In this document: piece after piece, positions 6,001 through 9,000 of the stretch
Layout of the letters: every line of letters begins with the position of its first letter
Position numbering within the stretch: position 1 is the stretch's first letter
Origin: a virus
Taxonomy: Duplodnaviria; Heunggongvirae; Uroviricota; Caudoviricetes
Strand: one strand, 5' to 3'
Length of the DNA: 49,454 bases
IMG/VR virus record: IMGVR_UViG_2519899780_000002
Program-made: the position numbers

Positions 6001-9000
6001 GAAAGCGCACCACGGAAACGGAAGCGATTTAAATTAAATTTTTCCAGATCATGAATGCGGAAATTCTCAGGCAATGCCACAGCATCGGCACCAATCTTAC
6101 TGATAATTTCATTAACACCCTGAGCAGAAATAAGGGCATGGATTTGATTAATTGCGGTTGCGTCTAAGTTCTGAGACATAATAAGTCCTCACTATATTAA
6201 GATATTCAGTGATGAGATAAATAATCAGTTAATTAAGAACGATATTAATGACCTGCTGCGCGGAGTTTTCCGTCAGGTTCACCGGCAAGAGTCAGTAATT
6301 GTCCCTGGTCTTCCTGCAGAATAGTCAGGCGACCACCTCGATTGACATACATCGGCGTTTCGGTGGTGTCTTCTTCGGAGATTTTCCCGCGGTTAGTCGG
6401 GCGAACATATGAGAGTTTGTGTTTGATTTTCACACGGTTCTCATCAAACGGTTCGATGTCCAGATTGACCGAGACTTTACCTTTGTTTTTCGTGTTCATC
6501 ACACCGGAAGCGACTTCACTGAGAACTGCGCCGAGTTTGGTTTCAAATACGCCGCCGTCCAGTTCTACGATAAATACCTGCACATCAGTACTGCGTACGC
6601 TAGCCATTTTGCTGCTCCTCATCATACCGACCCTGCAAGGTCGGTTGGTTTCTCCACAAAACAGAGAAGAACACCTGCGGTGACAGCCGCCCGGATGGAT
6701 TGGGTTATGAGCCCGTCGTCCGGTGATGCTCTTCTCTGTTTTGTAAAAAGAGCGGTACCAGCCGGAAGCAAGGGTACAAACTGGTACCGCCAAAGCAGTG
6801 GCTGTTGTGGTGGGGTTGTCACTCAGGCGTATGGTCAACCTGACAATCCGGTGTCCTCAACGGGGAAAGAGTAACCCCGCCATACTTACCGCCGCGCCAT
6901 TTCGCGGATTACCACAACGCTGAGAGCACTTAGCCAGTTACGGCACCACACTTTGTCGCGGTTCCATAAATGCCCTCATCGTTGCACCCTGGTCTCTTCC
7001 CAGGCGTCAAACCGGATCGCCACGCTGGTTAGGCGTCTTATCAGCATCATCATTGACTTGCACATTCCGGCTACCTGGTTTGTTTGCCCGAGCAAGGAGT
7101 GGATTGTCCCCTTTAACGTCACCAGACCGCTAACGACGCATGTGCCATACGCCGTGTTACAACCAAATTTTGTTAGTACCTTGTTTGTATGTCTGGAAAG
7201 AAAGATAAAATGAAGTTGCGCATTATGCAAGTGTTTTTATTGCGAGATATGCAATTTGGTGGGTAATGAAAAGCCACCTTCTGGTGGCTAATTGATGTTG
7301 AGGTAGGGGTTAATTGTGTCGCTTAAGGGTTTGTGACTGACTGATTAAGACCTTTCCAAAGACCATAAACCGATGTTCGTTTTCGCTGGTAATTCCCCAT
7401 TCGCGGTAAATCTGATTATCAGAAATTACCAGCAGTTTATCAGGTATCATTTGCAGTCGTTTGACGTAAATTTTATCATCAAAACCAAATACATATATAC
7501 CATCCCCATCAAACTGATTGATACTGATATCAACGAAGATGAGATCTCCTGGCTCAATGGTTGGACACATACTGTCCCCACGAACGTTGATAACTTTAAT
7601 GTGATTGGCTGGCCGTCCGCCAAACATCGATACAGCATTATCAGTTCTGTATTCAATGGCATGAATCACATCAATGACATCACCGCCCTGGATAAGGCCA
7701 TTTCCCGCACTGGCACTGACATCCAGCATTTCAATACGGAATACATCCTTCACCTGCGCAACATCCTCACCAATACTGTTTTTACATACAGTATTACTTT
7801 TGACGTCTGAGGTAAAGAGATCAGCGATATCAACACCTAAGCTCCTGGCAATATTACTCAGGGCTTGTTCAGTGAATTGTTTCTGCTTACCTGTTTCCAG
7901 GCGTGAGATATTCGCCGCATCCACTCCTATTGCTTCAGCGAGATCGGCGATTTTCATGTTCTTCGCCTGGCGAAGTTGTCTGACTCGGTTTCCTATGTTC
8001 ATGCGTTTATTACATTTCTTTATTGCGCGTTAAGCAAATCAACTTGCGCAAAATATTTGCGTGAAATAATATGCTCATCACGCAATATGTGGAGGTTATA
8101 TGCAATCACCATTACGGAATGTGCGTAAGGCGCACGGATTTACTTTGCAGCATGTTGCTGCGGGCGTTCAGGTCAATCCAGCGACGCTGAGTCGTATTGA
8201 AAGACTGGAACAAATTCCATCTATCGATCTTGCAGAACGTCTGGCCAATTTTTTTAAGGGTGAAATCAGCGAAATGCAGATTCTTTATCCGGCACGTTTT
8301 CAATCTAGCCAAAACCAGAATGGGTTTAAACCACAGGAACAGGAGGTAAGCCGTGGGTAATCATCACTGGAAAGTGGAAAAACAGCCTGAGTGGTACGTG
8401 AAAGCTGTCAGAAAAACTATCGCGGCGTTGCCGGGGGGTTACGCTGAAGCTGCTGAGTGGCTGGATGTAACAGAGAACGCATTATTCAACCGCCTTCGTG
8501 CAGATGGCGATCAGATTTTCCCGCTGGGATGGGCAATGGTTTTACAGCGTGCGGCTGGCACTCACTACATTGCGGATGCTGTCGCACAGTCTGCTGGTGG
8601 GGTGTTCGTATCGCTTCCTGAAATTGAGGCAGTAGAGAACGCCGATATAAACCAGCGCCTGCTGGAAGTCATTGAACAGATCGGCAGTTATTCCAGACAG
8701 ATTCGTTCAGCAATCGAAGACGGTGTAGTGGAACCGCATGAGAAGACAGCAATTAACGACGAACTGTATCTTTCAATTTCGAAGCTCCAGGAGCATGCAG
8801 CACTGGTCTACAAAATCTTCTGCGCTCCAGAAAAGAGTAACGCCCGCGAGTGTGCAGCTCCGGGCGTCGTGGCGTCGATTGCTTCTGGTTGTGGAGAAAC
8901 TAACGCATGAATAGTTTAACGGCAAATAACCGTTTGTCGCAACAGCTGGTGGTCAGCGTCGCTGAACACCTGTTGTTACGGCATGAATGCAGATTACCAA

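Follow-up and report, generated by a model that had tools for sequence, protein, structure and literature searches.

Structured RNA modules in the early-left leader of a lambdoid E. coli prophage: an sRNA-17-family small RNA, its terminator and a tRNA-like junction

Introduction

In phage lambda, an RNase III site lies between nutL and N. tRNA-like processing signals inside longer transcripts are found in the C4 RNA precursor of phages P1 and P7, which is cut by RNase P, among the stable RNAs of the T4 tRNA operon, and in MALAT1-mascRNA. The lambdoid phage HK022, which lacks N, has structured antiterminator RNAs of about 70 nucleotides (nt) and two helices, putL and putR, near its early promoters; antitermination by put depends on the zinc-binding domain of the beta-prime subunit of RNA polymerase. 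Here we describe a leader of another kind, in the IMG/VR virus record IMGVR_UViG_2519899780_000002. The whole stretch of 49,454 nt that was analysed is called the window, and the leader is the untranslated region of about 600 nt between its putative leftward operators (OL) and yfdP, the first early-left gene. One part of this leader has a described relative. The mEp460-like prophage of E. coli K1 RS218 encodes a 193-nt small RNA, sRNA-17, which was mapped by 5'/3' rapid amplification of cDNA ends (RACE) together with a Northern blot, and its replacement by a chloramphenicol (Cm) cassette raised yfdP 96-fold, with yfdR also up (PMC7719688). That paper gives no tRNA-like shape, no downstream junction and no context of the leftward promoter (pL). 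A 2026 preprint links two further RNAs of similar architecture, PasD and STnc100, and does not treat the leader itself.

The window is a lambdoid E. coli prophage. It shows 100% identity to the chromosome of E. coli FORC_069 over the tested stretch, and it is 96-98% identical to the phages PhiR40_1, mEp460, phiSTEC1575-Stx2k and cdtI and to a set of Stx2c phages. The RS218-type prophage that carries the published sRNA-17 is 97-99% identical to it. The initial annotation, made from the sequence alone, had seen a GC-rich, highly structured leader with a terminator inside it and without an N-like gene, and had proposed an attenuator or processing leader, an RNase III site or a structured small RNA. 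We find that the leader is neither a gap nor a simple attenuator. Its modules are a conserved RNA (M1-M2) near the promoter, a small RNA that ends in an intrinsic terminator, and a tRNA-like three-way junction directly ahead of yfdP.

Results and Discussion

The leader is a noncoding RNA read on the minus strand. Its G+C content is 0.52-0.59 across 6500-7100 as against 0.36-0.47 in the flanks. The minus strand of 6595-7200 has a minimum free energy (MFE) of -240 kcal/mol (z = -5.25 against shuffles), and for 6608-6750 the z-score is -6.55, with none of 200 shuffles equally good. The GC-rich composition and dense folding of the initial annotation are thus borne out. G:U pairs are tolerated on the minus strand only, and there is no conserved reading frame: the lengths of homologues differ by numbers that are not multiples of three, and several homologues have stops in all six frames (loci L012, L015, L025 and L032 for the junction; phage P1, L245 and L296 for M1-M2). 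The z-scores, the strand-specific G:U pairs and the missing frame together identify the region as minus-strand RNA. Comparison of homologues returned no conserved open reading frame (ORF) between the operators and yfdP, N-like or other, in keeping with the earlier impression that the leader holds no convincing gene.

None of the modules matches a family in Rfam 15, whether the whole window was searched at gathering thresholds or 6200-7400 at E ≤ 10; the loci of mEp460, phiV10 and Klebsiella phage GZ7 gave no leader-module match at E ≤ 1. A Hammerhead II match at 6606-6656 (15.5 bits) was rejected as chance, because it has no stem III and overlaps the ribosome site. A megablast search of 5426 complete E. 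coli genomes found the blocks 6642-6793, 6796/6812-6918 and 7054-7168 each independently in other prophages and plasmids. Owing to this modular spread, YfdP was used as the anchor for fetching relatives from IMG/VR and from other genera (Mangrovibacter, Atlantibacter, Enterobacter, Leclercia, Kosakonia, Phytobacter, Scandinavium, Pseudocitrobacter and Superficieibacter). In the other-genus loci YfdP is only 56-72% identical, yet the approximately 150 nt upstream of it are 71-89% identical in DNA, with compensatory changes visible. The coordinates of all features are collected in Table 1.

The small RNA belongs to an mEp460-like prophage, sits immediately ahead of the yfdP leader and has the GCGGTACCAG...CTGGTACCGCTCTTTT terminator end of sRNA-17. 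A structured small RNA had been one option of the initial annotation, and the sequence supports it. The published RNA has the ends 5' GTTGTGG... and 3' ...CCGCTCTTTT (PMC7719688); by the supplementary alignment of that paper and the mEp460 sequence it starts with GTTGTGGTGAATGCG. The copies in the window and in mEp460 share the first 7 nt (GTTGTGG; GUUGUGG in the RNA) and, but for one base, the last ~66 nt including the terminator, and both are followed directly by the same junction and then by yfdP. Their interiors (the central ~100 nt) are unrelated, and full-length similarity to the 193-nt sRNA-17 is absent: alignment is confined to the first 7 nt and the 3' third. By its sequence, the window small RNA is best classed as an allelic variant of sRNA-17 with a cassette-swapped interior. 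Any base-pairing targets would then differ from those of sRNA-17. The cassette nature of the small RNA also accounts for blocks that start at 6812 (in some cases 6796), end at 6918 and travel alone.

The predicted fold of the small RNA consists of an 8-bp closing stem (6918-6911 / 6811-6804, GUUGUGGU/ACCACAAC), three arms in a cloverleaf-like arrangement, a linker and the terminator. In phiV10 and a Phytobacter prophage this slot is filled by real tRNA genes, which start 1-3 nt from the same GTTGTGG. These slot tRNAs (L119 2742-2818 in phiV10 and L018 2722-2800 in Phytobacter) are a tRNA-Arg(tct) and an unusual tRNA with the anticodon AAT, and they share the upstream flank GUGCUCU..CGUUGUGG. 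On its 5' side, the small RNA is overlapped by the 3' strand of a long-range helix that encloses a variable insert. Its pairing is kept in the variants AGAGCAUUG/CAGUGCUCU and GAGAGCGCAC/GUGCGCUCC, as judged by eye. The variable inserts between M1-M2 and the small-RNA slot contain T-arm-like hairpins such as GGUUCGAUUCC and GUCCGUUCGAUUCGGAC (L038, L242, L009 and L301), which suggests further tRNA-derived cargo in these leaders.

The architecture also resembles that of STnc100 (RF02076) and PasD: a closing stem joins the 5' and 3' ends, the 5' side has UGGUGAAU, and a CCGG..CCGG hairpin on the 3' side stacks on that stem. The RF02076 model has no match in 6200-7400 at E ≤ 10; the true STnc100 of the prophage lies in the late region (19334-19524, 140 bits). 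Four intermediate alleles (L004, L006, L009 and L313) combine an sRNA-17-type 5' end with an STnc100-type CACCGGGAGGCACCCGGCACCA 3' end. We infer a common ancestry of sRNA-17 and STnc100/PasD.

The 10-bp inverted repeat at 6752-6790, which had been read as a minus-strand terminator, is a genuine intrinsic terminator. Its arms (6752-6761 / 6781-6790) are complementary at 10 of 10 positions, after which the minus strand reads TCTTTTTAC, so that a G+C-rich hairpin with an immediate U-tract stands on the transcribed strand. The hairpin coincides with the mapped 3' end of sRNA-17, for which 3' RACE was made on the identical hairpin in RS218. An automatic terminator scan had omitted it because the 19-nt loop exceeds the 3-8 nt limit of the tool. 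The inverted repeat is conserved: in the 78 distinct terminator segments of relatives, with 31 different stem sequences, a hairpin and a U-run occupy the equivalent place. Instead of an attenuator within a simple leader, the terminator is the 3' end of a discrete small RNA. Pairing of the terminator 5' flank (GCUGUGUGUAG) with the 5' arm of helix P1 of the junction was considered and dropped, because the E. coli and other-genus versions show no covariation.

The three-way junction begins within the terminator: the first five pairs of its closing helix, P1, join the terminator U-tract to GGAGA. The initial annotation had noted a perfect 13-bp inverted repeat (6658-6670 / 6730-6742). This repeat is present and conserved, and it lies within 25-nt arms (6656-6680 / 6720-6744) that are 84% complementary. 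It is the core of the 25-bp helix that closes the junction and belongs to its lower part. The MFE fold of the window sequence is the same structure as that obtained from covariation. For the latter, 16 diverged junction copies from 11 genera, retrieved via YfdP, were aligned with MAFFT without fitting to the structure. Standard pairs form in 93.4% of the cells, as against 43-61% when the 3' partners are slid by 1-3 columns. Twelve of the 39 pairs changed on both sides, and on four of five measures none of 500 shuffles reached the observed values; these counts are to be read with the relatedness of the sequences in mind, and with the fact that the structure was partly read from the same sequences. 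Covariation, for which the initial annotation had proposed a check, is present. Rfam holds no family with a match to the junction (E ≤ 10 in the window, E ≤ 1 in relatives).

The tip of helix P2 is identical at 14 of 14 positions to the anticodon stem-loop of E. coli initiator tRNAfMet (sequence from PMC8887418), including the three G-C pairs typical of initiator tRNA. The string GGCUCAU[AU][AC]CCCAAUC is kept in 15 of the 16 copies, which were retrieved via YfdP and not via the motif. The remainder of the junction is not tRNA-like enough for tRNA finders: it has no cloverleaf with D and T arms, ARAGORN returns only the tRNAs at 19009-19258, and the Rfam tRNA model matches neither the leader in the window nor the short-stem relatives. 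There is no acceptor-type stem with NCCA in the window, where helix P1 is followed by AACCAAC. In contrast, relatives with a closing stem of only 6-7 bp continue into GCCA or ACCA, much like a tRNA 3' end. With the known tRNA-like processing signals the junction shares the tRNA-shaped module inside a longer transcript, the slots that also hold real tRNAs, and the RCCA of the short-stem relatives. It differs from them in having no D arm and no T-loop consensus and, in the window copy, a 25-bp stem without RCCA. In an alignment that included the short-stem copies, MAFFT misaligned their 3' halves. Loop pairing with the start region (AUGAG) was discarded, since it is present ahead of yfdP and absent ahead of rdgC-type genes.

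Terminator and junction form a fixed unit. An exact 16-mer scan of IMG/VR gave at least 120 junction loci. The distance from the end of the U-run to GGCUCAU is exactly 31 nt in the long-stem copies, a spacing that holds for 78 distinct upstream segments whose stems have 31 unrelated sequences; in the short-stem copies it is 23-24 nt. The gene that follows may be yfdP, rdgC-like, yfdR or another first gene, so the element belongs to the position and not to the gene. Short-stem junctions are found in late operons after a terminator and ahead of holin genes; in the Klebsiella phages GZ7 and Chronis they lie 6 nt after a tRNA-Arg or tRNA-Asn, downstream of Q. Copies of this short form are those of L330 (1203-1290, phage GZ7), L331 (Chronis), L149, L208, L219 and L221. 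The junction family is thus a D-arm-less tRNA-like element sited where read-through transcripts begin.

The terminator-plus-junction unit occurs in 2494 of the 5426 complete E. coli genomes (~46%), and also in SfV, SfIV, ST64B, cdtI, Stx2a/Stx2c phages and phages of Klebsiella and Citrobacter. It is therefore very common, including in Shiga-toxin, cdt, serotype-converting (SfV/SfIV) and ST64B-type phages, where it is unannotated or mis-annotated as hypothetical proteins. A literature search on the exact motifs of the junction and of M1-M2 matched only tRNAfMet papers. Given this and their absence from Rfam 15, the tRNA-like junction and M1-M2 appear undescribed, while sRNA-17 has already been published. 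M1-M2, like the junction, is very common.

M1-M2 is a conserved multi-helix RNA at the promoter-proximal end of the leader, for the most part beyond the interval (6611-6960) marked in the initial annotation. It contains the invariant strings UAUGGCACAUG and GGUAGCCGGAAUGUGCAAG (the latter at 7075-7057) and ends in the hairpin GCCUGG-GAAGAG-CCAGG. In phage P1, positions 71010-71125, between the tRNA gene trnI (tRNA-Ile) and ban, are 88% identical to it; further copies are found in P7, D6, SJ46 and phiV10, and at least 120 loci in IMG/VR. RNAalifold on 18 diverged copies gave 28 pairs, of which 9 have compensatory changes, and invariant U:G pairs fix the sense strand. M1-M2 has no Rfam match and no conserved ORF. 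We regard it as a candidate cis-acting element for read-through of the terminator. A boxA-like reading of GUGCUCUUUCCGUUG was rejected because this string pairs within a conserved helix. Only L294 (IMG/VR contig 3300011524_000008), an unrelated arrangement, has the exact rrn-type boxA (TGCTCTTTAACAA), ~60 nt after M1-M2.

A terminator inside the leader had been taken to imply antitermination. An Arg-rich N-like ORF as first pL gene, the mark of a lambda-type N/nut system, is absent: the first pL gene is yfdP. Nor is the leader a member of the HK022 put family, the sole means known that needs no protein. We built a put covariance model (R1) from seven put RNAs, namely HK022 putL and putR and the put-like RNAs of HK639, phiEt88, CobraSix, S9-5 and PdC23. 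With filters off, no score within 6400-7400 exceeded 4.1 bits, and M1 reached 1.6 bits, as against 95.6 and 58.9 bits for HK022 putL and putR. A relaxed pattern search of the leader gave no site with the invariant stem II core of put (GGCGGGUUCAGGAUGAACGGCAAU), and a blast test for HK022 put in the leader was negative. M1-M2 resembles putL and putR in being a structured RNA near the early promoter of an N-less lambdoid phage and in a stem-I-like CGGCG/CGUCG with a G:U third pair. It differs in size (~170 nt with at least four helices), in having no stem II core, and in failing the covariance model. The best put-model match, a weak one on the rightward-promoter side (8910-8998, +; 11 bits, E = 0.016 for 3.2 kb), directly follows the cII-like gene; it is without the put core and is probably chance.

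From these observations we propose a leftward chain of RNA modules in which the terminator insulates the early-left genes and the junction serves as a processing mark on read-through RNA, a model to which we give about an even chance of being right. The terminator would make the 3' end of the tRNA-shaped small RNA and, in the quiescent prophage, would keep transcription that arrives from upstream out of yfdP-yfdQ-yfdR and the other genes of the early-left operon. Transcripts that read through would at once fold the junction, with the terminator U-tract recruited into its first base pairs. After induction, the junction could then act as a punctuation mark. Here cleavage would fall in the 25-bp closing helix, possibly by RNase III; in the short-stem relatives, the acceptor-like stem with RCCA would suit an RNase P-type activity. 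Such cleavage would detach the mRNA from the structured RNA upstream, define its 5' end, and free the hairpin at 6645-6626 and the ribosome site. The heavy structure may in addition shield the 600-nt untranslated RNA from Rho. For the long hairpin, we too favour the 'processing leader' among the initial proposals.

Several points weigh against this model. The RACE and Northern data belong to the RS218 allele; the body of the window small RNA differs from that allele, so that its expression is an assumption. The 5' end of sRNA-17 may be a transcription start rather than a processing site. As the RS218 deletion carried a Cm cassette, the rise in yfdP may stem from read-through from the cassette and not from loss of the terminator. 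Cleavage at the junction is a conjecture. The window junction has no RCCA and is not recognised by ARAGORN or the Rfam tRNA model. One enzyme would not serve both forms: the long one would call for RNase III, the short one for an RNase P-type activity. The mimic of the anticodon arm, the sole feature common to all forms, is not explained by a pure processing mark; the copies retrieved by the exact 16-mer cannot serve as evidence for conservation of its loop.

The long hairpin could instead simply be an RNase III site like that of the lambda N leader or sib, with cleavage of the 25 bp controlling the stability or translation of the first gene and the junction incidental. It matches the lambda site in position: in both, a long helix of the pL transcript lies shortly before the ribosome site of the first gene. 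The helix has 25 contiguous pairs, counting G:U, which exceeds the at least 20 uninterrupted bp (about two turns) of an RNase III substrate. We consider this unlikely, because conservation is highest at the top of the structure and not in the helix, because most genera have a C-U mismatch in mid-helix (column 18/125), and because the late-operon relatives keep helices P2 and P3 on a closing stem of 6-7 bp, too short for RNase III. Nor is the 13-bp repeat a free-standing RNase III hairpin. Unlike the lambda N-leader site and sib, it is part of a helix that encloses a conserved junction and directly adjoins a terminator, with neither nutL nor N. Rather more doubtful is a role of the P2 tip in mimicking the anticodon arm of initiator tRNA, or as a decoy for it, in which a hairpin that arises only in read-through transcripts would bind the 30S P site/initiation factor 3 (IF3), methionyl-tRNA synthetase (MetRS) or an anticodon nuclease such as VapC. 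The 14-nt identity with its diagnostic G-C pairs, its persistence in the independently retrieved copies and its invariance across long- and short-stem forms speak for such a role. The binding partner is hypothetical, however; the Scandinavium locus L030 has a different loop, the Klebsiella copies have UCC instead of CCC, and the likeness may be no more than the legacy of an ancestral tRNA gene whose anticodon was CAU. At its boldest, and we would call it a long shot, the mimic would tune initiation or disarm defence at lytic onset through these partners and, together with M1-M2, form a protein-free RNA toolkit that replaces N in a group of enterobacterial prophages that is very common.

A further proposal concerns the read-through step only and is compatible with the processing-mark model: M1-M2 would be a put-like, protein-independent antiterminator RNA that carries polymerase through the 6791-6745 terminator, and the absence of N would thereby be accounted for. 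High conservation and structure speak for this, as do the distance of ~40 nt between M1-M2 and the presumed pL start and the tRNAs or terminators that follow it in the operons of lambdoid and phiV10-like phages and of P1. Of 32 distinct contexts, 13 have a promoter-like match no more than 90 nt away (10% in shuffles), and the string ACGGCG...CAUGCGUCG is common to M1-M2 and stem I of HK022 putL. The 9-mer shared with put is, however, expected ~0.2 times by chance in a comparison of such size (a rough estimate made without a tool), and in phage P1 M1-M2 lies ~2.3 kb downstream of the ban promoters, after tRNAs. With the low covariance score of M1 and the missing put core, this function, read from sequence and predicted structure, seems improbable to us. 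Small proteins encoded in the leader, one perhaps a cryptic N analogue, would fit the ORFs of 26-84 amino acids (aa) on both strands and the coding sequences annotated here in several related phage records (66-aa or 84-aa ORFs, 'hypothetical proteins'). In different records, however, these annotations fall on opposite strands, and the substitutions in the helices are compensatory and without codon periodicity; with the stops and indels described above, this makes the proposal extremely improbable.

If the proposed model is true, spurious genes would be removed from annotations, and sRNA-17 would be a cassette in a pL leader whose terminator gates the early-left operon. The 'regulation' of yfdP and yfdR after replacement of sRNA-17 would then have a simpler reading. 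For lambdoid phages that lack N and do not belong to the HK022 group, M1-M2 and the tRNAfMet-like junction would become testable candidates for the means of getting past early terminators and of coping with a long untranslated leader.

Table 1. Features of the leader and its surroundings (positions in the window)
Feature	Position	Strand	Details
yfdR-like	4691-5254	-	
yfdQ	5355-6179	-	
yfdP	6245-6607	-	First early-left gene, 120 aa, ATG at 6607; RefSeq annotation 'protein YfdP'
Shine-Dalgarno of yfdP	6620-6615	-	GAGGAG
Hairpin	6626-6645	-	ACCGACC-UUGCAG-GGUCGGU; 6-8 nt upstream of the ribosome-binding region
tRNA-like three-way junction	6651-6749	-	MFE fold and covariation
Helix P1	6749-6725 / 6675-6651	-	25 bp; first five pairs join the terminator U-tract and GGAGA
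Helix P2	6723-6717 / 6697-6691	-	7 bp, plus 3-bp tip
P2 tip	6702-6715	-	CGGGCUCAUAACCC; three G-C pairs, CUCAUAA loop, anticodon CAU
Helix P3	6690-6677	-	4 bp
Intrinsic terminator	6745-6791	-	12-13 bp G+C-rich stem (GGCGGUACCAG.../...CUGGUACCGCU), loop 15-19 nt, then CUUUUU
sRNA-17-family small RNA	6746-6918	-	Putative allelic variant; ends shared with the mEp460 copy
Long-range helix	6915-6985	-	GCAACGAUGAGGGCA (6985-6971) / UGCUCUCAGCGUUG (6928-6915); encloses variable insert; seen by eye
M1-M2	6985-7157	-	Conserved multi-helix RNA, ~170 nt, promoter-proximal, 5' end of pL transcript
Operator-like palindromes	7216-7230 and 7240-7254		Two of 15 bp, TTGCGCATTATGCAA / TTGCGAGATATGCAA; direct repeat
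Terminator hairpin of repressor gene	7272-7289	-	
cI-type repressor	7310-8002	-	
cro-like	8100-8360	+	
YmfL/cII-like	8353-8910	+	

The gene order leftward from the leader is yfdP, then yfdQ and yfdR. The 120-aa start of yfdP is favoured because of its strong GAGGAG site; an in-frame AUGAUG 15 nt upstream (6621-6607, -) would add MMRSS, and a longer, 126-aa form of YfdP is annotated in some records. The hairpin ahead of the ribosome site, also seen in the initial annotation, is kept in relatives with its sequence exchanged, for example for GGCGG-UGGCA-GCCGCC. MAFFT leaves these positions unaligned. Both operator-like copies that had been proposed as OL are present, and they presumably mark the OL/pL region. 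A promoter-like match, TTGCAT-17-TATCTT at 7230-7202, was read by eye and would start RNA near 7195; the automated scan did not return this putative promoter.

Other RNA elements occur elsewhere in the window. Downstream of the cII-like gene, isrK (Rfam, 62 bits) at 9267-9343 and the C4 antisense RNA (75 bits) at 9365-9452 lie on the plus strand inside a mechanically called ORF (8907-10052). This region is a P1-type immI (C4/ant) module in the operon of the rightward promoter (pR), and the 5' part of the ORF is probably not coding. In the late region, a 653-aa ORF (19747-21708) is preceded by a tRNA-Met/Arg/Arg cluster (19009-19258, +), then the STnc100 copy described above (+) and then a terminator. 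RNA modules of the kind that make up the pL leader are in use there as well. A full-length Rfam IS009 RNA (224 bits) is found at 48849-49047 (+).

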